A stretch of 64,000 bases of DNA from Patescibacteria group bacterium (GCA_038063535.1 JBBTUV010000002.1:4723-68722), one strand, 5' to 3'. Positions 6,323 through 56,331 are shown, counted from the stretch's first letter. Translations and numbers: made by a program. Notes: generated from the sequence alone by a model not told the origin.

Positions 6323-6329
6323 TTGCAGT

Positions 6330-7367
6330 TTAAAGAGGCTTCGGGTACGGCGGATAGAGATCTTTATCGATCGTGCGTTCGAAGCATGTGCGGCCGGCCT
6401 GGTGGTCCCAGGATTCATTCATGCCTCCCCCGGGGCTGGGATACGGATATGAGACCGCCATATCCCTGCCCTCCATCATCGGCATGGGGTAAATTGGTCC
6501 GCCGGAATATTCACGCCAGCCTTTCGGTATCGGAAGTGCGAAAGTCGCACAGAGCTCAAAGGTAAGCGGGCTCTTCACGGCATATTCATATTTCTCCCCT
6601 TTCTCGAATTCCGGTGGAACAGGCAAGGACCAGCCCGAGAGCGGGTTCGCAAGCTCGGATACATCCTTCGGCAGCTTTTGTTTCAGCTGCCAGTAATTGA
6701 CTACCTGATATTGAATATTTTGTAGATCCCCCACTCGCCTGTCGTCAAGGCGAAGCTGTCTTTGTTGCCAGGGGCTCCCCATCACAATAAAACTCAAGAC
6801 GATCGCAAGAAGCACGATGAGAGAAGATTTTATGGCACCCCAAAGTCCTACTGAGAAGCCCCAGATCTTCTTCATACCCCGAAGTTCGAAAATAAAATTA
6901 AATCCGACAAACGCAGCAGTGAGGAGCGCAATGGCAACTTTCAGGATGAAACGGGTGGTTATCTCCCCGGCGATGAAGTAACGCACAAGGGTGACAAGAT
7001 CGATGACTATGACGAGCGCGGAGAGAAATAAAATTATGTAGATGACCCACTTGCGGATAGTTTCATCAAGCCGGCCGACGCCGCGCGCGTAAAGTTTCTT
7101 CCAGAAATACGCGAGAAGAAGAAAAACCGGGAAGAAGATTATGAGCGTCGAGAGCGCCCCGCGAATCCCTTCGTAATCATAAGAGTTAAAGCCGTACTGG
7201 TAAGTAGCGTTCAAGACATCCGGGAAACGCTTGTTCAGGGTTTCGAAAACGAGATTCAGGAACGAAACGACGGTAGTAACGAGTGTAATTAGCACCCCGA
7301 GCGACAAAAAGAAAAAACCGATATTAAACCTGGGCGTATTACCGCCTAAATTTTCTTGTGTTTCCAT
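6330..7367 (-). CDS. Polytopic membrane protein with a C-terminal Pro/Tyr-rich soluble tail (DUF5671-like architecture), hypothetical
   Basis: 345-aa ORF with about 6 hydrophobic helices in the N-terminal 200 aa and a soluble tail with PYPSPGGG and YPPYPKPL. Its stop at 6330 lies just upstream of the preferred leuS start. Confidence 0.4.
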   Translation of the reverse strand: METQENLGGNTPRFNIGFFFLSLGVLITLVTTVVSFLNLVFETLNKRFPDVLNATYQYGFNSYDYEGIRGALSTLIIFFPVFLLLAYFWKKLYARGVGRLDETIRKWVIYIILFLSALVIVIDLVTLVRYFIAGEITTRFILKVAIALLTAAFVGFNFIFELRGMKKIWGFSVGLWGAIKSSLIVLLAIVLSFIVMGSPWQQRQLRLDDRRVGDLQNIQYQVVNYWQLKQKLPKDVSELANPLSGWSLPVPPEFEKGEKYEYAVKSPLTFELCATFALPIPKGWREYSGGPIYPMPMMEGRDMAVSYPYPSPGGGMNESWDHQAGRTCFERTIDKDLYPPYPKPL

Positions 7368-7404: not shown

Positions 7405-7788
7405 ATGAGAGGAGTGAATAAAAAATTCGAGGATTATTCGCGGAGGATTACCCGCTGGATTGGATCTCCGCAATCCATCATCATCCATACGATTTTCTTC
7501 ATCGGGATTTTCTTCTTGCGGCTTTGGGGATACTCTGGCACCGATGTACTTCTTTTCCTAACCACCCTAGTCTCGCTTGAGGCTATTTATCTTTCAATAT
7601 TCATCCAAATGACCGTGAACCGGCACGCTGAGGAGCTTGAGGAAGTCTCGGAAGATATCGAAGAAATACAGGAAAACGTGGGCGAAATACAAGAAAACGT
7701 GGGCGAAATACAAGAAAACGTCGAAGAAATACAGGAGGACGTCGAGGAAATACAAGAAGATGAGGAAGAAAATGCTGTGTCAAATTAA
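7405..7788 (+). CDS. DUF1003-like small membrane protein with a C-terminal acidic heptad-repeat tail
   Basis: RITRWIGSPQSIIIHTIFFIGIFFLRLWGY...LTTLVSLEAIYLSIFIQMTVNRH resembles the DUF1003 core. The C-terminus is EEIQENVGEIQENVGEIQENVEEIQEDVEEIQEDEEE. Confidence 0.45.
   Translation: MRGVNKKFEDYSRRITRWIGSPQSIIIHTIFFIGIFFLRLWGYSGTDVLLFLTTLVSLEAIYLSIFIQMTVNRHAEELEEVSEDIEEIQENVGEIQENVGEIQENVEEIQEDVEEIQEDEEENAVSN
7660..7770 (+). repeat. Tandem 21-nt repeat, 5 units (gaaatacaagaaaacgtgggc and variants), encoding EIQENVG heptads
   Basis: Directly visible in the sequence: gaagaaatacaggaaaacgtgggc gaaatacaagaaaacgtgggc gaaatacaagaaaacgtcgaa gaaatacaggaggacgtcgag gaaatacaagaagatgag. Confidence 0.85.
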
Positions 7789-8595
7789 AAACTCGATGAC
7801 ATCTCCATTTTGGACGATATATTCCTTGCCTTCGGTGCGCAGCCAGCCGTGCTCGCGCGCTTTCGCATAGGAACCGGCCTCGAGGAGTTTATCCCAACGG
7901 ATGACTTCCGCGCGGATAAATTTGTCGTGAAAGTCGCTATGTATGGAGCGTCCGGCAACCGGCGCGGTCGAGTCCCGCTTACAAGTCCAAGCGCGGCTCT
8001 CCTTTTCCCCCGTGGTGAAAAAAGTAATCAGGTTAAGTAAATCGTACCCCGCCTGTATGAGCTTGTCCAAGCCTTTCCCGAAGATCGGGTCTACTTCTAT
8101 ATACGGACCGGGAAGTTTCCCGACAATGTCTGTGCGGTTTTCCGCCGCCTCGGAAGTATTCAAGACATAAAGGATAGGTTTTTCAATTCCGGCCTGTTTC
8201 AACTCGAAATTGATCACCTCGATGTCGAATAGCGGGTCGAGCTTCTCGTGCACATGGGTGATGCTCTTGTCTTCGAAAATCCGCACCACCTCGATGATCG
8301 CATCGACTTCCCGGATATGAGAGAGAAATTTATTCCCGAGCCCCGCGCCCTCGCTCGCTCCTTTTACGAGGCCTGCAATATCCACGAACTCGACCACCGC
8401 CGGTATGGTTTTCTTTGACTTCGACATCGCGGAGAGTTTCTCGAGCCTCTCGTCCGGCACGGGTACGATCCCAACCGACGGATCGATGGTGCAGAAGGGG
8501 TAATTTTCCGCCGGCACTGAGAGCTTGGTGAGCGCGTTAAAAAGCGTACTCTTCCCAACATTCGGCAACCCGACAATTCCCACTTTTAGCGACAT
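7780..8595 (-). CDS. ychF: Ribosome-binding ATPase YchF/OLA1, short form lacking the central helical insertion
   Basis: MSLKVGIVGLPNVGKSTLFNALTK...FCTIDP...EFVDIAGLVKGASEGAGLGNKFLSHIREVDAI is near-identical to the E. coli YchF G-domain. The C-terminal TGS domain ends ...GKEYIVQNGDVIEFLI. 271 aa versus about 363 in E. coli. Confidence 0.8.
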   Translation of the reverse strand: MSLKVGIVGLPNVGKSTLFNALTKLSVPAENYPFCTIDPSVGIVPVPDERLEKLSAMSKSKKTIPAVVEFVDIAGLVKGASEGAGLGNKFLSHIREVDAIIEVVRIFEDKSITHVHEKLDPLFDIEVINFELKQAGIEKPILYVLNTSEAAENRTDIVGKLPGPYIEVDPIFGKGLDKLIQAGYDLLNLITFFTTGEKESRAWTCKRDSTAPVAGRSIHSDFHDKFIRAEVIRWDKLLEAGSYAKAREHGWLRTEGKEYIVQNGDVIEFLI

Positions 8596-9656
8596 TATTT
8601 GTATTCTTCGAGCTTCTCTTTAAGCTTGCCTTCTTCCTGCCTTATGTCGCTAAGCTCCTGCGCAAGGGTCTCACTGGCGCCCTCGAGCTCGCTTATTTCT
8701 TTTTTTATTTTCTCCATATTTTGAACTCTATGAAAATGCGGCATAGGGAAATGCTGCCGGCGCAGGAGTAATATCATTATAGAGATAAAACCAATGCCGA
8801 AGAGAATATATATAGAGAGCAGTCCGAAGCTGGACTCTAGCGAGAAGAACCATGAATTGCTTGTCTTTGTCTCCCCGGGGAGAAATATCCACTTATCTGT
8901 GAGTGTCTGTCTGTCCGTCGCGCTTATTTGGGACAATCCCTTCTCAAGTATCGACTGAAGCGTTTCTTTCCCTTTTGCAAGGGAGAAGGCGGGCTTGTAG
9001 TCAAGACCGGTGTTCCCCGCGATCTTCACGCTCGAGAGCACTTGCTTGGATAGATAAAAAGATAGAGAGGCTACATCCATCACAGCCGCATCGACTTCTC
9101 CAAGAACCACCTGTTGAAGCCCCACTTCGTTATCCGTCACTCCCTCGCGCACAACCCGCGGATAATTTGTCTGCGTGAAATTTTCAATAGTGGAGCCGGC
9201 AACAAGCGCGACTTTCTTCCCCTGAAAATCATTCAGGGTAAGACCTCCGCCTGCTTTATAATCCTTCCGAACCACTATCACCACCGGCACGGTAATGTAA
9301 GACTCGGTGAAAATGAGATACTTCTCTTTTTCCGGATCTGAGGTAAGAAAGGTCACGTCTCCTTTCCCCGCCTGGAAATCTGAAAGAAGTTGGCTACGGG
9401 AGCGAGGGGTCAGATACTCGATCCTTGCGCCGATTTTCTCCGCTACAAGTTCGATGTAGTCGACCGAAAGGCCCTGCAGATTGCCTGCCGGACTTTGGTA
9501 TGAATAGGGAGGATTATTGGCCTCTGGGTAGAGGACAATAGTGTCGTTCCGGGATGATAGCCAAAGGGTTTCCTCGGGCGTAAAAAGGCCGGACGTTGCC
9601 GAAAAAGCCTGGTTCGCTAAAAGAACGAAAAAGAGTATCGAGACGATTTTCTTCAT
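8595..9656 (-). CDS. Secreted solute-binding-protein family 3-like domain protein, followed by a TM helix and a C-terminal coiled coil
   Basis: Signal peptide MKKIVSILFFVLLANQAFS (probable start at 9656; the ORF-track start at 9773 is an upstream extension). A periplasmic-binding-fold region follows (VALVAGSTIENF..., DAAVMDVASLSFYLSK). Then a hydrophobic helix LLSIYILFGIGFISIMILLL and a charged heptad tail EKIKKEISELEGASETLAQELSDIRQEEGKLKEKLEEYK. Start and stop overlap the neighbours by 1-4 nt. Confidence 0.45.
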   Translation of the reverse strand: MKKIVSILFFVLLANQAFSATSGLFTPEETLWLSSRNDTIVLYPEANNPPYSYQSPAGNLQGLSVDYIELVAEKIGARIEYLTPRSRSQLLSDFQAGKGDVTFLTSDPEKEKYLIFTESYITVPVVIVVRKDYKAGGGLTLNDFQGKKVALVAGSTIENFTQTNYPRVVREGVTDNEVGLQQVVLGEVDAAVMDVASLSFYLSKQVLSSVKIAGNTGLDYKPAFSLAKGKETLQSILEKGLSQISATDRQTLTDKWIFLPGETKTSNSWFFSLESSFGLLSIYILFGIGFISIMILLLRRQHFPMPHFHRVQNMEKIKKEISELEGASETLAQELSDIRQEEGKLKEKLEEYK

Positions 9657-10702
9657 ATGCCTGCCGCTCGCGTCTTGTCTTCCCGCTCGATATCGTGGCC
9701 GACAAGGGCAAGTTTTTCCTCTTCGAGCCCGAGCTTCCTGCCAAGCACCCTCATGCGTTTGAAAGAGTACCAAGGAATGAAGTAAATAAGTACAGCGAGC
9801 CCCACTATCGGGATGAGAAGTCCCAGAACGTTGATAAGAACCACCAGCGCTTTCACTATCTTTGAATCCGAGACGAGAAGCTGCACGCCGAGGCCGGGTT
9901 TTTCGGTGTTGCTCTCCTGCTCGACTAAAAACGGCGTCGTATTGTAAACCCCAGCCACCAGACCAGAGCCGGACTCGTATTGAAATTCGCCGGCCGGTGT
10001 GTTTTTGACCAGCACCTCATCGAGATTTTTCTTTTTCGATTGGAGAAGCGCGATGAATTTCTCGCCGATCGACTTCTCTGATATGTCCTTAAAGATTATT
10101 TTTGTGAGAGCATCCGGCTCGCCTCTTCCCTTGACATATACCGAGGTTTTCGAATCTACAAGCGGAGAATACTCGGTGATAACCGGCAGAGCTGCCAGCC
10201 TCGAGGAGGGTTGCGCTCCGGGGAGAAGGGCAAGCGAGCCTTCTCCGATATTGATCCCGTTTTGGCCAAGGCTTGCGAGAATGTTGGTGCCCTTGCCGTC
10301 GTTCGCTAGTATTGCCCCATTTGCGAAACTGAAACTGGCTCTCCCCGTTTTTTTTGCAAGATACGTTACTTGGAAAATTTTCCCGGAACTTCCCAGAAAG
10401 CCGGGGTTCAATATCACGCCTTCGAAAATTACTCCGTTTCGCCCGACGGTCGGTTCCTGTGTCCAGAGATCGATGATGCTCCCCTCCTTGGAAACGGAAA
10501 CAACTTGGAGCGTGCCTTCCGGGAATGAGAGAGTGCCGGAAACCGCATTGATCGAGTCGGTCGGCGAGCTGACTCGCACCTCAACCGTAAACTTTTCTCC
10601 GACGACGACAGCTTTCTCTGAAACACTCTGAAAAAGGCTCTGGGCCAAGGCAAGATTCGTTCCTAACAGAAAAACAACGAAGAGGCCTATGAGGCGCTTC
10701 AT
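9653..10702 (-). CDS. Secreted cohesin-like domain protein with a C-terminal TM anchor
   Basis: Signal peptide MKRLIGLFVVFLLGTNLALA. The beta-rich N-domain carries FTVEVRVSSPTDSINAVSGTLSFPEGTLQVVSVSKEGSIIDLWTQEP ... ILANDGKGTNIL. A paralog of the next gene shares the NDGKGT and SIN.VS motifs. C-terminal TM LVVLINVLGLLIPIVGLAVLIYFIPW then a basic tail. The cohesin assignment is from recollection of CPR cohesin-like proteins and is not computed. Confidence 0.45.
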   Translation of the reverse strand: MKRLIGLFVVFLLGTNLALAQSLFQSVSEKAVVVGEKFTVEVRVSSPTDSINAVSGTLSFPEGTLQVVSVSKEGSIIDLWTQEPTVGRNGVIFEGVILNPGFLGSSGKIFQVTYLAKKTGRASFSFANGAILANDGKGTNILASLGQNGINIGEGSLALLPGAQPSSRLAALPVITEYSPLVDSKTSVYVKGRGEPDALTKIIFKDISEKSIGEKFIALLQSKKKNLDEVLVKNTPAGEFQYESGSGLVAGVYNTTPFLVEQESNTEKPGLGVQLLVSDSKIVKALVVLINVLGLLIPIVGLAVLIYFIPWYSFKRMRVLGRKLGLEEEKLALVGHDIEREDKTRAAGI

Positions 10703-11550
10703 GCTTTAGATTTTAACACTTTCCAGAGAATAATTCCAGATAAGGCGAGAAGAATCAGGGCCAGCCATTTAAGGGGAAGAATTCCGGGCACCAGGATATT
10801 CGCTTCCTGGAAATTTCCGGCAAAATCATAGGCTCGCACCGTTACTTTCCGTGGGAAAAATCCGGGAGAGAGCGGCTCCGGGCTGTACGCTTCGCGGAAG
10901 CCTGATGCTCCAACTTTCATCTCATACGATTTTATCCCAGAATCAACGTCCTCCGCATGAAAAACAATGAGCGAGGGGGTACGGGAAAATATCGAAGAAG
11001 GTATGAAGGCGATTTCGACTCCCTCGGGAGGAATTTTGTCGGAGTGCACTCCGCCTCCGCCAGCCCCACTACCCCCAATCAAGACTTCTGCTTCTCCGCG
11101 AGTATGAGGGAGCGGGGTGCCTTTCCCATCGTTTTTGAGGAGAGTACTCTCCGAAACGCCGAAATACGCTTCACCGGGCCTCTCTGCGGTAAATTTGAGC
11201 TCGATAAGCGGAAGTGGCGCAAGGCCGGAAACCTCCGGATCGTAAACACCCGAGACTCCTCCGGGAATGATCCCAGAAAAACTGATTTTCCCGCTCTCCT
11301 CCTTCGGAGATTCTATCCAGACACTGAGAAGTCCGCCCGACTCGTCATAGCCCGAAAACGACACCAAGTCTTCGGGGTAGGAAACGGCGACGCTTACCGA
11401 ATTTATTGAAATTCCGTCAGGATCCGCATAGATCGTGGCCGAGAATTCTGCCCCCGTCTCCGCGCTCTTTGGTGCTGATACATACACTTCCGCTGCCTGT
11501 GCCCTTAAAGCAAAGAATAATATTGCAATAATGAAGAAAAATTTTTTCAT
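10699..11550 (-). CDS. Secreted cohesin-like domain protein (paralog) with a Gly-rich linker and C-terminal TM anchor
   Basis: Signal peptide MKKFFFIIAILFFALRAQA. FSATIYADPDGISINSVSVAVSYPEDLVSFSGYDESGGLLSVWIESP ... LLKNDGKGTPLP is paralogous to 9653..10702. GGSGAGGGGV linker. C-terminal TM LKWLALILLALSGIILWKVLKSKA. 4-nt start/stop overlap with the neighbours. Confidence 0.45.
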   Translation of the reverse strand: MKKFFFIIAILFFALRAQAAEVYVSAPKSAETGAEFSATIYADPDGISINSVSVAVSYPEDLVSFSGYDESGGLLSVWIESPKEESGKISFSGIIPGGVSGVYDPEVSGLAPLPLIELKFTAERPGEAYFGVSESTLLKNDGKGTPLPHTRGEAEVLIGGSGAGGGGVHSDKIPPEGVEIAFIPSSIFSRTPSLIVFHAEDVDSGIKSYEMKVGASGFREAYSPEPLSPGFFPRKVTVRAYDFAGNFQEANILVPGILPLKWLALILLALSGIILWKVLKSKA

Positions 11551-11816
11551 GTTATTTTCTTTTCGTAAAAATACTCCTTTAACATACGTTTTAACAGACG
11601 ACTGCCTTGGCTTGTTTTAAGATATTTTTCCCTTCTCTTTGCGTCACGTTCATTGCGGTACGCTTCGTAATGTATCAGAACCCAGGGCCTGTGTGATTTA
11701 GTAGATAAGTTAAAACCGCCATTGTGCCGCTTGAGACGCTCTTTTATGTCATCAGTATAACCGACGTATAGGTCTCCATATTTCATGCTTTGTAATATAT
11801 ATACGTAATGGAACAT
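11547..11816 (-). CDS. GIY-YIG nuclease family protein (UPF0213-like, 89 aa)
   Basis: YVYILQSMKYGDLYVGYTDDIKERLKRHN is the canonical GIY-(x10)-YIG motif plus a conserved Arg. It is a small stand-alone protein embedded in the surface-protein operon. Confidence 0.75.
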   Translation of the reverse strand: MFHYVYILQSMKYGDLYVGYTDDIKERLKRHNGGFNLSTKSHRPWVLIHYEAYRNERDAKRREKYLKTSQGSRLLKRMLKEYFYEKKIT

Positions 11817-11825
11817 GTTTTTCTC

Positions 11826-11916
11826 TTAAGACCCTGTCCACAGGGTAGTAGATTTTGGCGAAGCCCTTCAGGGCGCGCTCCGCGCATCGCCAAAATTCAC
11901 TACCCTGTCCACCAAA
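11826..11916. repeat. Compound intergenic palindromic element between the dockerin gene stop and the GIY-YIG start
   Basis: accctgtccacagggt is a perfect palindrome. tagtagattttggcga and tcgccaaaattcacta form a 16/18 inverted repeat around a loop containing gcgcgctccgcgc. The direct repeat ccctgtccac occurs at both ends. All read directly from the sequence. Confidence 0.7.
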
Positions 11917-12796
11917 ATGCCAAGATTGAAAAGTCGACCAGATTGATAATGCCATCCGAATTGGTATCCACGCATTTCGGGGGATTATTTTTCCCATACA
12001 AGAAGGCGAGGATAGAAAAATCAACCAAGTTGATTTTCTGATCCGCGTTGCAGTCCCCTGGGATGTTCTTGGTTAGCTCCGCGGAAGGGATGTTCACATC
12101 CCCGACCGTGAATTTCACCACCTTGCTTATTCGAGGATCATTTTCGTATTTAATGTAAAAGGTGTAATCCCCCTTCGCAAAGTCTCTGGTCGGAACGACT
12201 ATTTTATAGCGGCCGCCTGCGTTCGAAACTAAGCTGAAACTTCGCTCGGCTCCAGTGAGGCTGATCTGCGGAGAAACGAGCAGGAGGAGATTCCGCGCAG
12301 GCAGGCTCGAGCCGTAGATCGTAAGAAAGTCTCCGGCTTTTACCTGCGCGCGATCGGCAAGGACAGTCGGGGCAAAACGGATGCCGGAGAGGTGCGTGAG
12401 GTAACCGCTCCTGACAACCAGGGGGTAGTTGATAAGGAGCGAGCGTTCGCCGGAAGTATCCCGCGCAAAGAGAGTGTACAAGATGGTGCTGTCATAGCTC
12501 TCTTCTAGTGTGGCAGAGAATTTGCCTTGGCCGTCTGCCAAAACATCTCCGGCCGCCGCACCCTCTTTTAAAATACTCACCGTGGCAAAGGGGTACGCCT
12601 CGCCGGTGAAACGAACGGCAATATTGGGGAGTGTTCCGCCCCCGCCCCCGCCTGCTGGAGGGGGCGGGGGCGTTGTCCCTGAAACCGTGGCGCTCACTGT
12701 AACAGTCTCTGTTACTTGCGCGAGAGCCACACTGCCCTCAACAAAAAGGAGGAGGGCCAAGAGAAGAAAGAAAATTTTAGAGCGGTTAGGATCCAT
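11900..12796 (-). CDS. Secreted dockerin-domain protein with a poly-Pro/poly-Gly linker
   Basis: C-terminal tandem type-I dockerin-like repeats DCNADQKINLVDFSILAFLYG and DTNSDGIINLVDFSILAFWW (D-x-N-x-D-x-x-I-N-x-x-D...L Ca-binding pattern). Linker TTPPPPPAGGGGGGT. Signal peptide from MDPNRSKIFFLLLALLLFVEG (start at 12796; the ORF-track start at 12883 would overlap the upstream gene). Confidence 0.6.
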   Translation of the reverse strand: MDPNRSKIFFLLLALLLFVEGSVALAQVTETVTVSATVSGTTPPPPPAGGGGGGTLPNIAVRFTGEAYPFATVSILKEGAAAGDVLADGQGKFSATLEESYDSTILYTLFARDTSGERSLLINYPLVVRSGYLTHLSGIRFAPTVLADRAQVKAGDFLTIYGSSLPARNLLLLVSPQISLTGAERSFSLVSNAGGRYKIVVPTRDFAKGDYTFYIKYENDPRISKVVKFTVGDVNIPSAELTKNIPGDCNADQKINLVDFSILAFLYGKNNPPKCVDTNSDGIINLVDFSILAFWWTG

Positions 12797-13898
12797 GAGA
12801 AGGTGCAGAAGCTCTCGCCTTCTCGATGATGTATCTATTGTATCGCTCGATGAGCCACCTGCCGCCGAAGAAGAGAATCGCAAGTACGATTATCATGACA
12901 ATCACAAGCTGCCAGGGAAAGACAAAGAAAAGAACGGTATCCCCGGCCGATTCGCCGGCCGAGCCGTAAACCAAACGCAGATTCGCGACGTATAGCCCGA
13001 CGGCGAAATTTCGCCATTGGTAGCCTGCGGCGCTCCAGAATTTGCCCCAGGCCCCGGCAGGAGCGACGTAGCTCTCCGGGCGCTCGTATTTCACCCAGTC
13101 AACGCTAAATTTCCGGGTGCTATTGGGAAGCACGTTCCCTACGCTCGCGTTCGCATCGAGCTTCTCGGTTGGCCAGTAAACGCTGTTGTGGATAACGATC
13201 TTTCCTTCCGGCTTCACCCGGTCGCCTCCGCCGTTTCGGAAGCGGTATTCAAAAGCGATCGGCAAGGTATTGTAAAAAAAATTTTTGTCTTTGGTCGCGA
13301 ATCCGACCAGCCCCGCGTCTTCCCGCACTTCCCCGGGAACCGAAAGAAGCACCAAGACCCCCGTCTTTGCCCCAACTGAAACTCCGGGCCCGCTCGGAGG
13401 CGAAGTTCCCCAAAAAATTACCGCGAAGTATCCGCCTGGCTCGGCATCTTTTGGGATCTCGATGGTGAAGGGGACTGTTTTCTGTTGCCTGGCCCCTAGA
13501 GTTATAGAAGCTGATTCTGCGTGTATCCATGTACCGAGGCCGTCTTTCGGCTCGACGAACGAAGGACTTCCGGTTTCGCCTTGGGCTTCGAAATTTGCAA
13601 AGGAAGAGTAGTAAATTTCGGTGGTCTCAGTTTCGTTGATGAGGAGTATCTCTCCCGCTAGAGTGTCTCCAGGGTTTCCGGAAATTTCAAAGCGGACGGG
13701 AGTAAGAGTGAGAGCGAATGTAGTGAGAGGAAAAAGATACACCCCAAACGCAATTACCGCAAACAGCGCCAATAGTACTCTGTATTTTAAATAATTCTTC
13801 ACTATGGAGATAATACAACTAGAACGTTCCGGTTGCAATAAAGGTAAGGGTATCAGTGTAGTCAGAGTGAGCTTGAGTAGTCCCAGCCACTGCACCAT
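12786..13898 (-). CDS. Beta-rich cell-surface protein with a C-terminal TM anchor (DUF916-like architecture, tentative)
   Basis: N-terminal hydrophobic segment VLLALFAVIAFGVYLFPLTTFALTL, a long beta-rich ectodomain, then a C-terminal TM LVIVMIIVLAILFFGG and a basic tail RWLIERYNRYIIEK. The start is uncertain: ATG at 13898 overlaps the upstream gene by 80 nt, and a GTG at 13802 is an alternative. Confidence 0.35.
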   Translation of the reverse strand: MVQWLGLLKLTLTTLIPLPLLQPERSSCIISIVKNYLKYRVLLALFAVIAFGVYLFPLTTFALTLTPVRFEISGNPGDTLAGEILLINETETTEIYYSSFANFEAQGETGSPSFVEPKDGLGTWIHAESASITLGARQQKTVPFTIEIPKDAEPGGYFAVIFWGTSPPSGPGVSVGAKTGVLVLLSVPGEVREDAGLVGFATKDKNFFYNTLPIAFEYRFRNGGGDRVKPEGKIVIHNSVYWPTEKLDANASVGNVLPNSTRKFSVDWVKYERPESYVAPAGAWGKFWSAAGYQWRNFAVGLYVANLRLVYGSAGESAGDTVLFFVFPWQLVIVMIIVLAILFFGGRWLIERYNRYIIEKARASAPSHGS

Positions 13899-14919
13899 TG
13901 ACAGCTATTTCAGCATGTCCCGCGCTAACCGGAGCTCCACCGGAATTTAAAATATTTTCACCGGCTGTTGTCAATGCGTCTATAACATTTGTGTTTGAGT
14001 TAGTGGCGCATGTATTGCCTGAATATGGCGCGGCTATAGTAAAGCCAACCAAGCCAACTGTGATTACGCATAATCCATAATTTTCAGTCCCAGCTGCCAT
14101 TGTTCCAGTTGTGCTGACAATATTGTCTGCCGGAACCGAGGTAGAAACCATTCCATTTGCGCCGTTGGTGTCACTCACTGTTACCACCATACCACCAGAT
14201 GCATTTGTATCACCCTCTGCTATTATCATATTTACAGAATCCGTTGTACCTGATACTTCTACATCGCCTGTGCCTATAGTACCCAAAGCAACGGAATAAG
14301 GAGTCGTTGTTTCGCCATCAGCTACGCCTGTATCTAGGTCAAAAGTAATACTCTGGCTTACTGTTGCAGTAATAGAAACGCGGTCATCATCATTTATAGA
14401 CATTGCGGCTGTACCCGTATCTCCGAATGTTCCGGAAAGAACTAACGTCGTCGTTCCCGCAGTACCATTAGTAATCTGACGAACTCCGGTAGATTGACTT
14501 GTAGCGTTAGTACCGATTTCAATAGTTACCACACTGGTTGCTGCAACCGCCGCGCTTCCGTTGGTGAATGTAATCACTGTAGCAGAAGTCCTTACGACTC
14601 CCCAGGTTGTGCCAGATGGAGCGGCAGCCAGAGTAACATCTACCCCGTCATCCGCAAGGTCAATATCAGTAAAATCTAAAGCGGCGGCAATGCTAGTACT
14701 ATTATCAAACGTAAGTATAAGAGTAGCAGACGCTGCAATTCCTGTAGGAGTAGTAAATGTTATTGTATGGTTAGCAAGGGTAGATGCTTTTTCCCTACTT
14801 AGTGTGTCTTTAAAAGCTGTTACCGAAGCTGCCATAGCGGCCTGTGGGGCGACAAGAATTAATAGCGATAAAATTGTAATTCCGCTAACAAATCGAAAAA
14901 GTTGCTTTTTGCTTTTCAT
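13819..14919 (-). CDS. Secreted Thr/Gly/Ser-rich beta protein, paralog A, ending in the conserved motif DYTDTLTFIATGTF
   Basis: Signal peptide MKSKKQLFRFVSGITILSLLILVAPQAAMA. About 40% T/G/S/A composition. An internal segment YGLCVITVG...NTCATNS is shared with paralog B (YGLCIVSTS...DTCAANS). The C-terminal 11 residues are nearly identical to paralog B. Confidence 0.5.
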   Translation of the reverse strand: MKSKKQLFRFVSGITILSLLILVAPQAAMAASVTAFKDTLSREKASTLANHTITFTTPTGIAASATLILTFDNSTSIAAALDFTDIDLADDGVDVTLAAAPSGTTWGVVRTSATVITFTNGSAAVAATSVVTIEIGTNATSQSTGVRQITNGTAGTTTLVLSGTFGDTGTAAMSINDDDRVSITATVSQSITFDLDTGVADGETTTPYSVALGTIGTGDVEVSGTTDSVNMIIAEGDTNASGGMVVTVSDTNGANGMVSTSVPADNIVSTTGTMAAGTENYGLCVITVGLVGFTIAAPYSGNTCATNSNTNVIDALTTAGENILNSGGAPVSAGHAEIAVNGAVAGTTQAHSDYTDTLTFIATGTF

Positions 14920-14976
14920 GCTTAAATTATATCAAATTTGGCCGTTTTAACATAGAAATCGGGCCTGTGGATAACC

Positions 14977-15774
14977 CTAAAACGTCCCGGTCGCGATGAA
15001 AGTAATAGCATCCGCATAGTCATTGTGCGCCGGCGTGGTTGAGGAGATCGAGACATTTACCGATATCTGCCCCCTCCCGCCGATAACCGGAAGGCCGTTA
15101 GTATCAAAAATATTCTCCGGGCTAGTTGAGAGTGATCCGGTGTCATTAGTCTCGGAGTTGGCTGCACAAGTATCGGCGTTGTACTCACCCTCATCGTCGA
15201 GCGTGCCTGTCGTGGCCGAAGTTGAAACGATACAAAGTCCATACATCTCTGTGCCGTCGGCGACTGCGCTGTCGGCACTATCGATATCATCAGCAGGCAC
15301 GGAGGCTGAAGCCAAACCATTTGCGCCGTTTGCGTTCGCAACCGTCACCACCGCCCCGCCGGCGGCGCGGGTCTCAAGGTCGACACAGATATGGTTCACC
15401 GAGTCGGTTGCGCCGGAGACGCGAGTGTCGGTGGTAGTGATGGTGCCGAGAGAGACCGTATAAGGGGCGGCCGATTCGGTCACCCCACAAGTGTCCGCCG
15501 CGGTGGTATCAATGTCAAAAGTAATAAGTGACGCCGATTCTTCCCAATATAAAAATCCGTATCGAATTTGAAAATTGGTGGAGGTGCCGCCGATATCAGA
15601 GAGAGTTGTGTGTCCGGCGGAAATGAGGCCGTAGTTTGTGGAGGTTGACCATTCTTCTCCGAAAGTGCCGATGATCGGATCGCGAACAATAAAACTAGTG
15701 CTCGTCATGTCAAATGCTAGCGTGGAAAAAGCAAAAAGGAGTACGGGAATAAGAAAAGCCAATCTTCGCATCAA
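14977..15774 (-). CDS. Secreted Thr/Gly/Ser-rich beta protein, paralog B, ending in NDYADAITFIATGTF
   Basis: Signal peptide MMRRLAFLIPVLLFAFSTLA. It shares several collinear blocks with 13819..14919, including the identical C-terminal TFIATGTF. Confidence 0.5.
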   Translation of the reverse strand: MMRRLAFLIPVLLFAFSTLAFDMTSTSFIVRDPIIGTFGEEWSTSTNYGLISAGHTTLSDIGGTSTNFQIRYGFLYWEESASLITFDIDTTAADTCGVTESAAPYTVSLGTITTTDTRVSGATDSVNHICVDLETRAAGGAVVTVANANGANGLASASVPADDIDSADSAVADGTEMYGLCIVSTSATTGTLDDEGEYNADTCAANSETNDTGSLSTSPENIFDTNGLPVIGGRGQISVNVSISSTTPAHNDYADAITFIATGTF

Positions 15775-15801
15775 CTATATTTTAGCAAATTTCTAACGGG
15801 A

Positions 15802-16209
15802 TTAGAATTCACCGGGCGGAAGTATGCCTGCCTCACTCGGCGCTAAGGATGATTGGCCGAAATCTCCGAGATTGACCGGCGCGATATTGACGACGAGATT
15901 GAGCGACGGCCGGTAAAGGTAGGCTCGCCGGGCACCCGTATATATGAGAACCTTGTCGCCCCGCTCCGCTTCAGCAAAGAAAGCCTTATTTTTCAAGACT
16001 TCCTCATCGGAAACAGTGGCAATTATCGGCGTTTCCCCGGAGGGGAGAAGAACAAGCTTCCCTACCCGCTCGGTGAGCTCTTGCGCCGCTGCTTTAGCCG
16101 CTTGCTCTGGATCCTCATAGGAGATTTTGCTCTTGTAGAAATAACCGAGAACGATGACCAGTACAACGAGAAAAACTATGATGAAGTATCGGCGGAGAAA
16201 ATTTCTCAT
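15802..16209 (-). CDS. Small N-terminally membrane-anchored protein, hypothetical
   Basis: 135 aa with an N-terminal TM YFIIVFLVVLVIVLGYF. Its start overlaps the stop of the giant gene by 4 nt (ATGA). Confidence 0.4.
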   Translation of the reverse strand: MRNFLRRYFIIVFLVVLVIVLGYFYKSKISYEDPEQAAKAAAQELTERVGKLVLLPSGETPIIATVSDEEVLKNKAFFAEAERGDKVLIYTGARRAYLYRPSLNLVVNIAPVNLGDFGQSSLAPSEAGILPPGEF

Positions 16210-19200
16210 TCACGTTTTCTTCTAATAATCGTCGCCGCTCCGATCACTATACCCAATGTGAGTGTGAACGCCACCGGTATAGTCGCGTCGCTTGCTCCCG
16301 CTCCCGCGAATTGCCGGGAAGCCGGCAGGGCTCCCGAATCGCCTCCCCCTCCGTCGCCTGCTCCACCGCCACCCACTCCTGGGTCTGGAGTTCCCCCACT
16401 TTCGGCGCCTCCAGTTCCCCCATCAGGAGAACCCGCGCCCGCGCCAACTTGGGCATCCGGAGTAGCGGATGCCTCAACTCCGCCACCTCCGCCTCCACGC
16501 GAAACTATATTAGCTGTCCAGCAAGAGCCGTTGTTTCCGAGATTGACTGTGGTGAAAGTAGAATCTACGTTGTTCCCGCCCGAGCAAGCCGAGTCTTTGA
16601 CCGAAATATAGCTGACGGTCGCAGTGGAACTGAAGGTGGTGGTCCATTGACTGCTGGCTGTGTCGGAAGAAACCGCCAGGATGTTTCCACTTTGTCCGGC
16701 GATGTCAAATGTGCCGGCAAAAGTGTAAGTGTTCCCGGCCTTGAATTTCAAGAATTTCCCCGCACCGTTCGCGGCACTGACGGTAAAATTATTGAAAGTA
16801 ATATTGCTGGCGCCCCCTATGGTAGTAATGGTTCCACTAGCCACTTCACTTCCAACGGAATAAAAAGTGGAAGGAGAATTTTGGTTGTTGTATTCCGTGG
16901 TTATCCAGTCAGCGGAGCGAATAACATTTGAGACTCTCGCTTCATCAATTCCACCGTTGAAATAAAAAGTTGACACCCCATTTCCTCCCATACTCAATGT
17001 GAGAGTACTGTCGGCATCAAGAGAACCTGTAGGTGTCGTAACAGTGTTTGGAGAAGCAACTAAATTTCCATTAAGATAAAAGGTTGGTATTGTTAATGAA
17101 CCATTGTGTGTCACCGCGAAATGATACCATTGGCCCGTGGCAACACTTGCAGCACCAGTTCCCCATTGTCCATCAGTTCCACTAAAGCTCCTGAAAAATT
17201 CAAAATTTGTTCGTGTGCTTCTTGCTATTGATAGCCAACCGAGATCTCCTGCGGCGTTTGTTTTTCCCAAGCCGCTTCCGAACGAATTGGTGAAGGCAGT
17301 TACATACAACCATTCTTCTACGGTTATGTTAGTAAGATTATTTATATCGGTTGAAGCATTTGTATTTATAATAGCAGTGGAACCATTGAAATTTGCTCCG
17401 CCATCTATTTTGGCAGAAATTGCAGTTGCGTTAGAAACCGTACCATTAATCATACTCGTGGTTGAATCTAATGCTCCTAAAGTAGTCCCATCCGGCAAAT
17501 GCCAAACCCCTTTGTAATTAGAATCCCAAACATTTGTTTTATCCGATTGGTCAGCGGTTACACTTGAATTTCCGTAAGCCATGTAAATAACAGTGTCGGT
17601 AGCCGTTGCAACTGTCGGAACTTTAACCCAATAAATTACTTCGCCGGTTGTAGCGATATATCTTTCCGTTTCGTGTTTCAATTGAGTTGTTAAAGTTAAA
17701 TCAGAGAAGAAAGCCACGTCATAACCATTCGCATTTTGAACCAATCCGCCATTAGCTACTGTTGCCAGGTATGAATACGTTCCTGAAATTAAGACAGGGA
17801 AATTTGTCTGGTCGGTGTTTGGAACTTTTGTTTTATCAATGGTGATGGTTCTATAATACTGATAAGGAGAACCGGGGGTGAGGGTAACCGTTCCGGAATT
17901 GTGAGTGAATGTTCCGTTGTTAGTTAAATTCCCGCTTAGGTTCAAGCTGGCTGGCGCACTCAATGTACTGCCTGTAGCAATAAGTGTGGTTTTTATATTC
18001 AAAGTTGGATTATAAGTATTGGCATTTGCAGTTAGGGCGTTGGTTCCATCGCCAATTGTCAAAACACCATCAACTGTTATGGTCTGCGAAGTTCCGGTTC
18101 CTAGAGTGTAGGTCACAATACCCGCAGGAATAAGAGAGAGGTTGTAAAAAGTGGTGTTGGCGACGTTAGTAGCAGAGGTGCTGGTGTATTGAAAAGTAGA
18201 CATGCCGGCGGTAAAGGTCCCCGTTGTCACCAACGGTGTTCCGGAGCCGGAGAGAGTCCAAGTTTTGGAGCCAGCGTTTAAAGTTTGATTGAGTGCGATT
18301 GTTAATACTCCTGTAGCGGTAATGCCTCCTGTTCCCGTGGCGGTGCTTGCCGTTGCCCCCGTCCCATCGCCCAAGGTTAGAGATGAGAATGTCCAGGCGG
18401 TAGCTCCACCGAAGTTGCCAGCTCCGTCCAAGAGGAAAGTTCCACCTGTTAGATTGATTGTGCCATCACCCGTAACATCTCCCCCGTTGACAGTAATGCT
18501 ATTCGTTCCGGAAAGAGTTCCTGCGGTCATGGTGATGTCTCCCGCGATGGTATTCGATGCATCCGCGAAAGACCAGCCCCCACCGACACCGTTAAAGGTA
18601 ACATTGTCTAAGTTGCCTGTTCCGTTATCAATGGTGTGGCCTGTGGCTGTGGCGGTAAATGTTGTCACTTGGGGAGAACCAGATTCAGAGAAAGTACCAG
18701 AGTTTACGAAATCGCCACCGACGGAGAGTGCGTTTGTTCCCATAGCAAGTATGGCGGAAGTTTGAATAGTGAGGTCTCCGTCAACAGAAGAAGAGGACGC
18801 AGAGGGGTCTGTGGTAACCGTTCCTCCTGGAGTGTAGGTCTTCCCTGTCCAGATAATTACCTTGGCTCCATCTTCGTAAACAGCATCATTGGTGGTAACT
18901 GTAAACATCATATCGCTGTCGCCTACATTGTCAAATTGGTCTAGATTGGCATTGGTAATAGGTCCCGCGTCTTCATGGCTTACAATCACTCTATTCTGAT
19001 AGAGGTTAAGACCCGAGACATTCCCTCCGCTAGCAGCTCTTGTTATGAGGTTGGCTTGGTTTCCTGCATTGGTGTCCAGAAAGATTGAAACTACTTGTCC
19101 TGCCGAGACGGTAACATTGGGAATTGAGTAGACACCGGAACCGTTGGCGACAGCAGAGTAAGTTCCTCCTCCGTTTACTCGCAGTGCGACTGTCGGACCT

Positions 19201-21254
19201 GTAGTCATAAGGGTGGTGCCTTCATCGGTGTAGACTGTTCCGGAGAAAGTAGCTCCTACCGGCGTCGCCGGACTCCCCGTAGGCACTGTGCCTGCATCGT
19301 AGTTGCCATAGGAATCTTCAGTGAATATTTTGTAGTAGTAAGCTGTGCCATTGGTAAGCCCGGTGTCTTGACAAGTTGTGGCGGGTGGAGAACCAGTCAC
19401 TACACAAGCCACGGTGTTAACTGTGTTGATGATGTTGCCTACCGTGTATGTTGTTCCTTCTACTGGAACATCAGTGACCACTGATGTTTCTCGACGCAGG
19501 ACGACCACTGTTCCGCCTGTGGTGAAAGATGAATCGACTGATGATGGATTAGTCCAAGCTAGGTCAACAATGGTGTTACCCGCGGTGACGGTAGAAGAAG
19601 CAACAGCTCCAGGAGAAGCGTTGTCTACTGTGATGGTGGCAGAATCGGTGTCAGTTCCCGCAGTCGTGTTAGTTGCCGTAATTGCAGTCACTGTTGCTGT
19701 TGTCGCATAACTCGCTCCCGGAACAGCCGGCATGTTGGCGTGAGTCTTGGGAGTAATCTTGACAACATAATCTGTGGGAGTGGTGGTGACATCTATGGCA
19801 CAAGTTGTCAGAGCGACAGCGTTTGCAGATGGGGTGGCGGAACATTTCAGTGCATCGGCTGTGGTGTATACACCGACTGTGGCAATGTTTGTGTAAGCAC
19901 TTGCATCTCCTGCAAGAGTTACTGTCATGCCTGTAACTGTGTCAGTGCCAGAGCTTGTGGCAAGAGAAAATCTATCAATTTCTGTGGCGGAAGCTCCCGG
20001 ACCGATGGTGGAGTTACTGCCGTCGGTGCCGTCACCGAGGGTAGTGGTGGGTGCATATTCCACCAACCCCCAAATGGTTGAAAACCAGTTGTCGGGGTTG
20101 CCGTCAGTTACGTTTACTCCGGCTATCATTGTGTCTAAAAGAGCGGGTGTCCACGCCCCGCCTGCTTGCGGGTCGGTGTAGGAAGTTAGTTGGTAGTTTC
20201 TCTTGAAAGTACTGTCGAAGTTTGTCTGCCAAGTGGTGTCGTTTTGGGAGGTGGAAGTTCCGCTTGTGGTTGTTCCGCTAGACTGCGATTTTATTTGTGG
20301 CGTCCAAGCACCCGCAACCGCTGTTTCCATTGTTTGTCGAGTTCCAACTTGTACTAAAGTAATGCTATCGTTGGACGCTCCTCCGGCGCTCGCCCAAGAT
20401 TCAAAATTGTAGTTTGCCTGTTGACCGCCCGTATTAGTATCCACTTCAATATAATCAGTTACATCATTAGGTGTCACTTCGTCAATCGCCGAAAAAAGTC
20501 CCGCAGTAGCCGCCGCATCTCCCGCAGAATCAGGTTGCATATGTAAAATTCCACCAGCTCCAGGTAATCCATTCTGTACCGAACCAGAATTGCTGTTGGC
20601 AGCGATGTCGTCAAAATACCAAACTCCAGTAGTGTGCGCTTCGGCGCCCCCATTGCCTACAAAATAAAACTGGTCTTGAACTTTGCTTATGTCTCTAGTG
20701 GAAGAGCCGATGTTCAGTGTTCCGTCAAGATACAGATTTACAGTATCAGTTGCTCCAGCCCCAGAAGTATCTATTTCAAGTTCCAACCTGTACCAAGTAT
20801 TTAAAGAAAGAGTAGAACCCGTGCCAATGCTTCCATCTTCATCCACCAAAGACAACTGCCCCGCATTATCTACTTTCACAAAAATCTGCCTAGTGGCATC
20901 AGCATTTCCTGTCACCATAAAAGAATTAGCGGCAGTAGGAAAAGTTTCAAAGCGAACATACGCTCGATAAAACTGTACTGTTCCATATTCGTTTGGGATA
21001 ACATAACCGCCCCGCCTTGAAGAACTTCCAGTAAGAGCTATCTTTAAAGAATAGGTGCCAGTTCGGACAGTGGTGGTATCAATCGCCCCAGGAGCAATCC
21101 ATTCGTTGTATTCAACATCGTTTGTTGTTGTTCCTAATTCAAATCCTGATGACCAAAGACGCGCAGCAAAAGTTTGCGAAGGAGAAATTAGCAAGGTAAA
21201 AAATACAATCGTTAAGAAGTGAACGAGAGCTATTTTTTTAATTCGAGAAATCAT
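16206..21254 (-). CDS. Giant (about 1680 aa) Thr/Gly/Asn-rich surface protein with an FN3-like segment, Gly-rich stalk and C-terminal TM anchor with RRKRE tail
   Basis: Continuous ORF. The likely start is MISRIKKIALVHFLTIVFFTLLISPSQTFA (signal peptide) at 21254; the ORF-track start at 21356 is an upstream extension. An FN3-like signature LTNGTAYYYKIFTEDSYGNYD is present. The C-terminus is GGGGGGVEAS...GGGGAGDGGGGDSG followed by TM FTLTLGIVIGAATII and RRKRE. No LPXTG or PEP motif was seen. Confidence 0.7.
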   Translation of the reverse strand: MISRIKKIALVHFLTIVFFTLLISPSQTFAARLWSSGFELGTTTNDVEYNEWIAPGAIDTTTVRTGTYSLKIALTGSSSRRGGYVIPNEYGTVQFYRAYVRFETFPTAANSFMVTGNADATRQIFVKVDNAGQLSLVDEDGSIGTGSTLSLNTWYRLELEIDTSGAGATDTVNLYLDGTLNIGSSTRDISKVQDQFYFVGNGGAEAHTTGVWYFDDIAANSNSGSVQNGLPGAGGILHMQPDSAGDAAATAGLFSAIDEVTPNDVTDYIEVDTNTGGQQANYNFESWASAGGASNDSITLVQVGTRQTMETAVAGAWTPQIKSQSSGTTTSGTSTSQNDTTWQTNFDSTFKRNYQLTSYTDPQAGGAWTPALLDTMIAGVNVTDGNPDNWFSTIWGLVEYAPTTTLGDGTDGSNSTIGPGASATEIDRFSLATSSGTDTVTGMTVTLAGDASAYTNIATVGVYTTADALKCSATPSANAVALTTCAIDVTTTPTDYVVKITPKTHANMPAVPGASYATTATVTAITATNTTAGTDTDSATITVDNASPGAVASSTVTAGNTIVDLAWTNPSSVDSSFTTGGTVVVLRRETSVVTDVPVEGTTYTVGNIINTVNTVACVVTGSPPATTCQDTGLTNGTAYYYKIFTEDSYGNYDAGTVPTGSPATPVGATFSGTVYTDEGTTLMTTGPTVALRVNGGGTYSAVANGSGVYSIPNVTVSAGQVVSIFLDTNAGNQANLITRAASGGNVSGLNLYQNRVIVSHEDAGPITNANLDQFDNVGDSDMMFTVTTNDAVYEDGAKVIIWTGKTYTPGGTVTTDPSASSSSVDGDLTIQTSAILAMGTNALSVGGDFVNSGTFSESGSPQVTTFTATATGHTIDNGTGNLDNVTFNGVGGGWSFADASNTIAGDITMTAGTLSGTNSITVNGGDVTGDGTINLTGGTFLLDGAGNFGGATAWTFSSLTLGDGTGATASTATGTGGITATGVLTIALNQTLNAGSKTWTLSGSGTPLVTTGTFTAGMSTFQYTSTSATNVANTTFYNLSLIPAGIVTYTLGTGTSQTITVDGVLTIGDGTNALTANANTYNPTLNIKTTLIATGSTLSAPASLNLSGNLTNNGTFTHNSGTVTLTPGSPYQYYRTITIDKTKVPNTDQTNFPVLISGTYSYLATVANGGLVQNANGYDVAFFSDLTLTTQLKHETERYIATTGEVIYWVKVPTVATATDTVIYMAYGNSSVTADQSDKTNVWDSNYKGVWHLPDGTTLGALDSTTSMINGTVSNATAISAKIDGGANFNGSTAIINTNASTDINNLTNITVEEWLYVTAFTNSFGSGLGKTNAAGDLGWLSIARSTRTNFEFFRSFSGTDGQWGTGAASVATGQWYHFAVTHNGSLTIPTFYLNGNLVASPNTVTTPTGSLDADSTLTLSMGGNGVSTFYFNGGIDEARVSNVIRSADWITTEYNNQNSPSTFYSVGSEVASGTITTIGGASNITFNNFTVSAANGAGKFLKFKAGNTYTFAGTFDIAGQSGNILAVSSDTASSQWTTTFSSTATVSYISVKDSACSGGNNVDSTFTTVNLGNNGSCWTANIVSRGGGGGGVEASATPDAQVGAGAGSPDGGTGGAESGGTPDPGVGGGGAGDGGGGDSGALPASRQFAGAGASDATIPVAFTLTLGIVIGAATIIRRKRE

Positions 21255-21326
21255 AAAAACACATAAAATTATATCATTTTTCCCTTTCCAATTGAAAAAA
21301 TAATGTGGATAGGTCATAATGAATGG

Positions 21327-22055
21327 ATGACAAACGAGGAGGTTCGAAGATACCAAGACCCTGAAACCGGCAAGCAGTGGTTTTCGATGGTTGACATAAT
21401 TGCTTTAACTACCTCCAGTAAAAATCCGCAGAATTACTGGAAAGTTCTAAAAAGTCGTTTAAAGAAAAGCGCTCCCGAGTTGGTTACAAAGTGTAACCAA
21501 CTTAAAATGAAAGCAAAAGATGGGAAATATTACCTCACCGACGCCGCCGATGTGGAAACCCTGACCGAGATCATCAAACTGATTCCGGGGGCAAATGTGC
21601 ATAGCCTCGAGGAATGCGTAGCACCGTTTGTAACAACCCCTCCAACCCCCACCCCCTCTTCTGTTTCCCCCAAAGGGGGAGAAGAATTACCCTCTCCTTC
21701 GGAGAGGGTTAGGGAGAGGTCAGAAGTCCCGACGTCCGAAGGAGTCGGGACCCCGACCGAAAGCGTCGGGGCTGAACTCCTCCTCGACGCTTACGAATCC
21801 GGAAATTATATTTTCATCGAAGCCTTCATCGCCGGCGTTTCATTGGAAGATTTGAACATAGACGTTGAGCCGAGAAAAATAATCATCGAGGGAAAAAGAA
21901 CGAGATCGGGAGACGATTATTTCACACAAGAATTACAATGGCTTTCCTTCTCCCGCACACTCGATCTCCCCGCTCCCGTTGACACGGAGAGAGCGGAAGC
22001 AACTGAAAGGGACGGGCATCTTACGATCCGTCTTCCGAAGGTGATTGTTCAGTAG
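21327..22055 (+). CDS. Hsp20/alpha-crystallin domain protein with an N-terminal Bro-N-like domain and a linker encoded by GC-rich palindromic elements
   Basis: C-terminal NYIFIEAFIAGVSLEDLNIDVEPRKIIIEGKRT...FSRTLDLPAPVDTERAEATERDGHLTIRLPK is a clear alpha-crystallin domain. The N-terminal GKQWFSMVDIIALTTSSKNPQNYWKVLKSRL...DGKYYLTDAADVETLTEIIKLIP loosely resembles Bro-N (.PWFVAKDVA..LG..NP....). The linker TTPPTPTPSSVSPKGGEELPSPSERVRERSEVPTSEGVGTPTESVG is encoded by the palindromic element at 21636..21771. Start taken as the M at 21327; the ORF-track start is 21303. Confidence 0.55.
   Translation: MTNEEVRRYQDPETGKQWFSMVDIIALTTSSKNPQNYWKVLKSRLKKSAPELVTKCNQLKMKAKDGKYYLTDAADVETLTEIIKLIPGANVHSLEECVAPFVTTPPTPTPSSVSPKGGEELPSPSERVRERSEVPTSEGVGTPTESVGAELLLDAYESGNYIFIEAFIAGVSLEDLNIDVEPRKIIIEGKRTRSGDDYFTQELQWLSFSRTLDLPAPVDTERAEATERDGHLTIRLPKVIVQ
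21636..21771. repeat. Cluster of GC-rich palindromic units inserted in-frame: a core-less derivative of the leuS DUF559-element TIRs plus two cccgac-N7-gtcggg hairpins
   Basis: aacccctccaacccccacccc (like the leuS left TIR start), tttcccccaaaggggga hairpin, ccctctccttcggagaggg (like the leuS right TIR), then gtcccgacgtccgaaggagtcgggac and cccgaccgaaagcgtcgggg hairpins. All visible directly. Confidence 0.7.
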
Positions 22056-56283: not shown

Positions 56284-56331
56284 CTAATATTCTTTTATAC
56301 TTACCACTCCAATGTTTATTCATACATAAAG

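Follow-up and report, generated by a model that had tools for sequence, protein, structure and literature searches.

An unannotated C-terminal domain of secreted Patescibacteria proteins and its WxLIP-like, membrane-anchored genomic partner

The WxL domain (Pfam PF13731) is defined by two conserved Trp-x-Leu motifs, the first of which follows Asp-x-Arg-Gly, and attaches to peptidoglycan without a covalent link. WxL is found to more than 91% in Firmicutes (PMC9772566), its genes are clustered in the order small paralogue, large paralogue and a protein with two immunoglobulin (Ig)-like domains and a transmembrane (TM) helix (PMC9772566, PMC10599100), and the small WxL proteins are acidic, with an isoelectric point (pI) of 4-5 (PMC1534035). 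WxLIP has 337-365 residues and consists of a signal peptide, DUF916, DUF3324 and a TM helix (PMC10599100); it carries a hairpin that is disordered alone and that AlphaFold2 predicts to be the strand completing the WxL sandwich (PMC9772566, PMC10599100), the hairpin becoming ordered solely upon WxL binding (PMC10599100). Here we describe a locus in a 64,000-nucleotide stretch (the window) of a genome of the Patescibacteria, or candidate phyla radiation (CPR) (GCA_038063535.1, JBBTUV010000002.1:4723-68722), in which two secreted proteins, A and B, share a C-terminal domain, AC, that ends in a highly conserved tail, and in which the gene of the larger protein, A, is followed by that of a TM-anchored protein, C. 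The locus belongs to a tightly packed run of surface-protein genes on the minus strand (Table 1). In the literature we found no paper linking WxL-type systems with Patescibacteria.

According to a preliminary description of the window, two adjacent genes encode signal-peptide proteins of 366 and 265 amino acids (aa) with nearly identical C-termini, and both points stand: A and B are open reading frames (ORFs) whose products begin with signal-peptide-like segments and end in ...DY(T/A)D(T/A)(L/I)TFIATGTF, directly followed by the stop codon. A is composed of a signal peptide (residues about 1-31), an N-terminal beta domain, AN (about 32-185), and AC (186-366), and B of a signal peptide, an N-terminal segment of about 60 residues and AC; the N-terminal segment of B (residues about 22-80) holds three short repeats of the type S-T-(S/N)-(F/Y)-x-(I/L). 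Thr, Ser, Gly and Ala make up about 50% of A and B, the mature pI of both is about 4.05, and neither has a membrane or cell-wall anchor of its own. Searches of Pfam and NCBIfam gave no match for A, for B or for AC, and a profile search of PDB sequences with the A family gave none either. A has at least 681 homologues (90% clustering), every named one of which is called hypothetical and which come from Patescibacteria wherever they are labelled; the named homologues of the genes studied here are all from metagenome-assembled genomes of the Parcubacteria, Paceibacteria, Nomurabacteria or Uhrbacteria type. Both proteins had been taken for low-complexity sequences, a description that does not fit A, since its column identity averages 50% over 39 homologues and conservation spans the whole protein, A-type proteins reaching up to 85% identity between species.

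The likeness of A and B had been read as conserved islands plus a tail. The tail remains, but the islands dissolve into a continuous domain, since in a BLASTP alignment of 182 aa A191-366 and B84-265 are 51% identical (E=6e-52), so that what the two proteins share is a domain of about 180 residues. In the AlphaFold2 model of A, with a mean predicted local distance difference test score (pLDDT) of 90.8, a signal helix is followed by a beta domain (34-176), a short linker and a second beta domain (191-364). An exhaustive search with a hidden Markov model (HMM) of both window AC domains against 1.84 billion cluster representatives (50% identity clusters) recovered at least 372 AC clusters at E<=1e-3, 253 of them at E<=1e-10, and all identifiable ones are from Patescibacteria. 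The figures for the terminus of the family come from 150 listed representatives of the 372 clusters, and those for the tail columns from 146 of these. The AC match reaches the last residue of the protein in the 150 representatives, except for two in which it is one residue short, and the host proteins range from 173 to 2955 aa, about a quarter being longer than 600 residues; likewise, 140/140 AC domains in 78 genome loci end no more than 3 residues from the stop codon. This placement in host proteins of very different length identifies AC as a modular, strictly C-terminal domain, which, like the C family, is unannotated to date. Within the window, the domain and its tail occur only in A and B. 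Elsewhere, giant AC proteins of 1,100-2,585 aa were observed (in loci L064, 8746-12033, and L019, 85-7842, and in L048, L070 and L078), and one giant has 13 RCC1 repeats in front of its AC domain.

The tail is the most conserved 9-residue window of AC, with a mean top-residue frequency of 0.86-0.87 against 0.76-0.79 in the other strands. Its family consensus is H-x-D-Y-x-D-T-L-T-F-[IV]-A-T-[GA]-T-[FY]-COOH; the last residue is F in 125 and Y in 21 of the 146 representatives, position -13 is Y in all 146, position -14 is D in 145, and nothing lies beyond the final aromatic in any of about 290 instances. The genome loci had been fetched with the tail motif as one search pattern, which may introduce a selection bias, and conservation was therefore remeasured on unselected paralogues, in the HMM-only search and in C-selected loci. 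In 41 second paralogues that were not selected by motif, mean pairwise identity was 75% in the last 14 residues and 41% in the rest of the domain, in agreement with the earlier view that the tail is conserved beyond what drift would leave. In the model of A the tail is the last strand (residues 358-364, pLDDT about 96) of a well-folded domain, and across the representatives this strand is conserved on both faces, L/F/A/G/F on one side and T/I/T/T on the other, which is more than a purely buried strand would need. A divergent A-like subfamily, the AC domain of which falls below the HMM threshold, ends in ...AGSYxTxHTYVATGNF. Its ORF is found directly upstream of the C-family gene in loci L120, L123, L125, L126, L134, L142, L143, L149 and L158, and the tail core (Y at -13, [FY][IV]A[TS][GA][TN]F-COOH) here outlives the rest of the domain.

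The TM-anchored protein C is the obligate genomic partner of the tail-bearing gene. Of the 78 species-level genome loci identified by way of A, 70 have a C-family gene as the next one downstream, on the same strand, and this adjacency survives in loci whose A shows only 30-40% identity and whose cluster is otherwise altered; the commonest layout is an AC-only protein, an AN+AC protein and C, with variants that have two to four AC genes. In a reverse set of 80 metagenome loci, collected via C-family patterns only, an upstream ORF ending in the tail motif was present in 69/69 loci with at least 600 nucleotides (nt) of upstream DNA, including loci of the divergent ...HTYVATGNF subfamily. The co-occurrence of the tail with a specific membrane protein, which had been suggested as a check in related genomes, is borne out, and the downstream TM-anchored beta protein had been picked correctly as the candidate partner, although not with the right limits: instead of spanning 12786..13898, C most likely begins at the GTG at 13802, because its homologues measure 337-345 aa, and this start gives 338 aa, lying 16 nt past the stop of A without overlap. 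Two or three tandem or flanking C-family genes were observed in L041, L043, L049, L051, L057 and L079, and L005 has a C-family protein of 638 aa, indicating that some lineages have duplicated or fused the putative anchor gene.

For C at least 655 homologues were found, and its mean column identity, 66%, is higher than that of A. A signal peptide and two Ig-like beta-sandwich domains are followed in C by a TM helix and a cytoplasmic tail that is basic, with a pI of 10.3; the motif FFVFPWQ is conserved. The AlphaFold2 model of C (pLDDT 80.3) has two beta-sandwiches and a C-terminal helix, and when it was compared with the PDB by Foldseek the three best matches were 9i1y_A (3e-12), 9i25_C (8e-12) and 9i1y_B (8e-11), with TM-scores of 0.39-0.51. 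Of these, 9i1y is WxLIP of Enterococcus faecium and 9i25_C is WxLIP bound to a long WxL protein; the next matches are RbmA and then the chaperone-usher chaperones CsuC, CfaA and Caf1M. At the sequence level, PF06030 (WxLIP_PGBD, formerly DUF916) matched 35/38 C members, always below threshold (best E=1.6e-4), the C of the window scoring 14 bits against a cut-off of 27. PF11797 (HBD) did not match the C family, so that the gathering threshold was reached for neither WxLIP profile. When C was compared by hhalign with three WxLIP sequences from Listeria and E. faecalis loci, the alignment covered 87 columns in the first domain (P=0.003, probability only 10%), and a PDB-sequence profile search with the C family gave no match. 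The signature NQIDKxxxYFDLK is absent from C, which has ALTLTPVRFEISGNPGD instead, and only the core x-F-[DE]-[LI] aligns with YFDL. The first Ig-like domain of C holds a conserved hairpin, NFEAQGxxGxPxF, in which N is kept at 91%, F at 99%, G at 99% and F at 97%, and the next W at 100%, in 75 sequences. This hairpin is the least confident part of the model, with a pLDDT below 50 at its tip, and by analogy with the hairpin of WxLIP (PMC10599100) it may be the strand that inserts into AC.

A comparison with WxL had been suggested from the outset. It is upheld for C, through its best structural matches and the gene order, but not for A and B, which do not carry a standard WxL domain: Pfam WxL matched none of 39 members at E<=10, against an HMM made from genuine WxL sequences of E. 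faecalis and Listeria (loci L001-L003, fragments P0241-P0267) the family scored no better than shuffled copies, and hhalign gave a probability of 0.1%. In addition, the PDB-sequence profile search with the A family gave no match, and nothing was found when the WxL C-terminal peptide was searched against PDB sequences.

In light of these data we propose that A, B and the giant AC proteins would be exported by Sec as acidic surface proteins that lack an anchor of their own, and that AC would be the docking module shared by A and B. The C-terminal helix of C would fix it in the membrane of the bacterium itself, both Ig-like domains lying outside the cell, and C would retain the AC proteins non-covalently, the hairpin of its first Ig domain pairing with or completing the AC sandwich. 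The invariant end strand of AC, ...LTF(I/V)ATGT(F/Y)-COOH, with its free carboxylate, could be part of the interface or its direct support, and since proteins ending in AC can reach about 2,900 residues, one anchor might display many different N-terminal working domains. Binding of AC to C and its geometry are deduced from the obligate gene adjacency together with the WxLIP precedent, and the location at the cell surface is likewise a proposal. Docking of A and B on C by beta-strand pairing is the best explanation of the data, and we put its probability slightly above even.

Several observations weigh against this proposal. The binding step is deduced from gene adjacency and analogy, A and B have no detectable sequence relationship to WxL, and the 50 best Foldseek matches of the A model do not include the WxL chain of 9i25. 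Confidence in the model of C is only moderate, with a pLDDT of 80 for the best one of five and about 60 for the others, and proteins with two Ig domains are common in Foldseek, C having 547 matches at E<=1e-3. Some giant AC proteins sit in loci without a nearby C gene (L048, L064, L070 and L078). Moreover, no co-variation between the A and B tails was seen within genomes, their identity being 77% within loci and 76% between loci.

A more specific reading, which we regard as possible but doubtful, is that the AC tail is an obligatorily free C-terminal strand caught by a membrane-tethered, PapD/WxLIP-like two-Ig protein via donor-strand complementation, so that the locus would encode a single-membrane "chaperone-anchor" system or a strand-exchange fibre, with a domain unrelated in sequence to WxL. 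If this were true, display by WxL/WxLIP and the chaperones of chaperone-usher systems would be joined as one ancient mechanism, and a conserved platform for the large host-contact proteins of episymbionts would have been named.

Alternatively, the tail could be purely structural: as the final strand of the core it would close the beta-sandwich and be kept for folding, without a part in recognition, while C uses other surfaces or is merely co-regulated. Indeed, residues 358-364 form an ordinary strand in the AlphaFold2 monomer, where the domain is complete and confidently modelled, good conservation is also seen in other core segments such as GTENYGLCV, and the missing co-variation of tails within one genome is what such a role would allow. 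On the other hand, the tail is conserved above every other strand and on both of its faces, and folding alone needs no such limit as the complete lack of extensions after the final aromatic, so that we consider this explanation unlikely.

It is less likely still that A and B are subunits of a pilus- or sheath-like polymer assembled by donor-strand exchange, with a C-terminal strand that pairs with a donated strand, as in chaperone-usher pilins, in which case C, tethered to the membrane, would not be the final anchor but a PapD- or CsuC-like chaperone or assembly platform. After WxLIP, the best structural matches of C are CsuC, CfaA and Caf1M with subunits (E about 1e-8, TM-score 0.5), and the conservation of A-type proteins between species is unusual for a surface protein and expected of a structural subunit. 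The tail, with its alternating hydrophobics and a terminal aromatic after Y-x-D-T, presumably resembles the last strand of chaperone-usher and spore-coat-U (SCPU) pilins. However, A is modelled as a complete two-domain protein with no obvious missing strand, neither the window nor the conserved cluster has an usher-like gene, pilin and SCPU matches from Pfam are absent in 39 members, and CsuA/B and other pilins lie outside the best 50 structural matches of A. A PapD-type Arg/Lys carboxylate clamp was also considered for C and rejected: the R is invariant in 38 close homologues, but in 75 wider members the Arg8-like position is R in only 61%, and the Lys112-like position is K in 57%, Q in 23% and R in 8%. 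Patescibacteria are generally regarded as single-membrane bacteria and are thought to lack an outer membrane.

The tail had been proposed as a recognition tag comparable to known sorting signals. It is indeed family-wide, strictly C-terminal and the most conserved segment of the domain, but a cleaved signal in the manner of LPXTG or PEP-CTERM, processed by a sortase, exosortase, rhombosortase or archaeosortase-like enzyme, has only the C-terminal position and the conservation in its favour and is very improbable. No hydrophobic helix or basic cluster lies past the motif, because the protein ends there, the motif is modelled as an integral beta strand, NCBIfam sorting domains gave no match, and no such enzyme is present among the window proteins scanned, as had been noted earlier for sortase and exosortase. 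Finally, the terminal ...x-F, an aromatic after an alternating pattern like that of outer-membrane protein C-termini, is hardly credible as a BamA-type beta-signal for insertion of an outer-membrane beta-barrel, given that both domains of A are confidently modelled as soluble beta-sandwiches and not barrels, no BamA-like gene was seen in the window and a single membrane is assumed for these bacteria.

How Patescibacteria attach to and interact with their hosts is largely obscure, and most of their surface proteins are unannotated. What is new here is an unannotated C-terminal domain of at least 372 clusters, including proteins of 1,000-2,900 residues, paired with one membrane protein, and the domain and its partner sit in a same-strand cluster of about ten genes kept across dozens of species-level genomes. 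If C is an anchor, the tail motif would list the displayed surface proteins, as LPXTG or WxL does in Firmicutes, and WxLIP-type display, reported almost only from Lactobacillales and Bacillales, would have a counterpart in a distant phylum with a different docking domain.

Table 1. Genes of the locus and features of A, B and C; positions are counted from the first nucleotide of the window.
Feature	Position	Strand	Description
G	15802..16209	-	135 aa, N-terminal TM segment; upstream member of the conserved cluster
B	14977..15774	-	265 aa, small secreted protein; ORF and translation
AC domain of B	14980..15537	-	residues 80-265, to the last codon; AC-domain HMM match E=1e-72
Tail of B	14980..15027	-	HNDYADAITFIATGTF, then stop codon; read from sequence
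A	13819..14919	-	366 aa, larger secreted protein; ORF and translation
AC domain of A	13822..14364	-	residues 186-366; about 10 beta strands, two conserved Cys (C284, C304)
Tail of A	13822..13869	-	HSDYTDTLTFIATGTF, then stop codon; modelled last beta strand E358-364
C	12786..13802	-	338 aa from the most likely start, GTG at 13802; WxLIP-like type I membrane protein
Conserved hairpin of C	13557..13595	-	NFEAQGETGSPSF, N70-F82 (338-aa numbering); candidate strand inserting into AC
C-terminal helix of C	12810..12914	-	helix 287-321; holds TM segment FFVFPWQLVIVMIIVLAILFFGG, then RWLIERYNRYIIEKAR
Downstream members of the conserved cluster (D, GIY-YIG ORF, E, F)	9653..12883	-	Pfam
D	11900..about 12796	-	Big_6 plus dockerin (Pfam)
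GIY-YIG ORF	11547..11816	-	small inserted ORF between D and E
E	10699..11550	-	signal peptide and C-terminal TM segment
F	9653..10702	-	signal peptide and C-terminal TM segment
H	8595..about 9656	-	solute-binding protein with TM segment
I	7780..8595	-	YchF GTPase

A, B and C belong to a larger same-strand cluster (window 7780-21356, minus strand) that comprises a giant LamG protein followed by G, B, A, C, D, E, F, H and I, an order seen again in about 40/78 species-level genomes (loci L004-L081). In particular, homologues of D, E and F trail C in this order in 44/78 loci, and a homologue of G is kept, with position and strand unchanged, in 25/78. The ORF with a GIY-YIG nuclease domain within this surface-protein operon is missing at that place in most related loci. 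D carries a type I dockerin, and E and F, each with a signal peptide, a beta-rich region and a C-terminal TM segment, are its candidate receptors by position; neither Pfam nor a search of PDB sequences revealed a cohesin in E or F. A scan of the operon for promoters and terminators was uninformative, terminator sites being no more frequent than expected by chance.

Elsewhere in the window, adjoining genes for a thioredoxin and DsbD_2 (54740-55945, plus strand) suggest an extracytoplasmic disulfide system, and the two conserved Cys of AC may be disulfide-bonded. Leucyl-tRNA synthetase (3026-6418, minus strand, 1130 aa) has a DUF559/REase-like domain (residues 296-400) and a NUDIX domain (557-671) inserted inside the enzyme. 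The stretch 56001-64000 has a GC content of 0.31-0.34 against about 0.50 elsewhere. Genes for a SocA/Panacea-domain antitoxin (56900-57370), for a type III restriction Res helicase (58165-60474) and for an N6/N4 DNA methylase (60477-62189) lie in this stretch, which is probably a defence island gained by horizontal transfer, or else a join in the assembly.

With regard to known systems, the tail resembles sortase and exosortase signals (LPXTG, PEP-CTERM) in that secreted surface proteins carry it as a conserved C-terminal motif, and differs from them in that it has no TM segment or basic tail past the motif and no cognate enzyme, and lies within a folded domain. Cohesin-dockerin pairs of the cellulosome type also combine a C-terminal docking domain on varied proteins with a receptor in the membrane or wall, and D of the same operon has a dockerin, but folds and motifs are unrelated, the dockerin being a small Ca-binding helical module, and a cohesin was not detected in E and F. 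The likeness to chaperone-usher chaperones (PapD, Caf1M, CfaA, CsuC-CsuA/B) is closer: C has the two-Ig boomerang fold (Foldseek E about 1e-8 to 1e-7, TM-score about 0.5), its partners carry a conserved C-terminal strand ending in an aromatic, and pairing by strand complementation is plausible. Unlike those chaperones, C is anchored in the membrane; the system has neither an usher nor an outer membrane, the Arg8/Lys112 clamp is not kept family-wide, and A and B are modelled as complete domains.

The WxL/Csc clusters of Lactobacillales and Bacillales (CscB small, CscC large, CscA WxLIP) have a layout like that described here. In both cases, two or more secreted paralogues have in common only a domain of about 160-190 residues (AC has about 180), which is invariably C-terminal, and beside them stands a single gene whose product, of ~340 residues, has a signal peptide, two Ig-like domains and a TM helix. 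A small domain-only form occurs with large forms that vary in their N-terminal domains and here reach about 2,900 aa, and the small proteins are acidic. C matches WxLIP in its length of 338 aa, its two tandem Ig-like domains and its TM helix, but lacks the NQIDKxxxYFDLK signature and stays under the Pfam thresholds. By eye, the tail D-Y-x-D-T-L-T-F-I-A-T can also be set against the distal WxL motif Y-x-x-x-L-T-W-x-L (PMC1534035 supplement 7), a lead only, without statistical support. In contrast to WxL, AC has no Trp-x-Leu, the AC of A being without any Trp and reading ...SDTNGANG-M-V-S... and ...LT-F-I-A... at the two places, and W stands at tail position -7 in only 2/146 representatives; its chain stops at the aromatic, whereas WxL proteins add 4-30 variable residues past the motif. 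The cluster also differs in having no LPXTG (CscD-like) gene and in its host phylum, the Patescibacteria. Taken together, the putative docking domain fails the WxL sequence tests, and the order of the partners and their parts give the locus the layout of a WxL/WxLIP cluster with a remote WxLIP-like partner.

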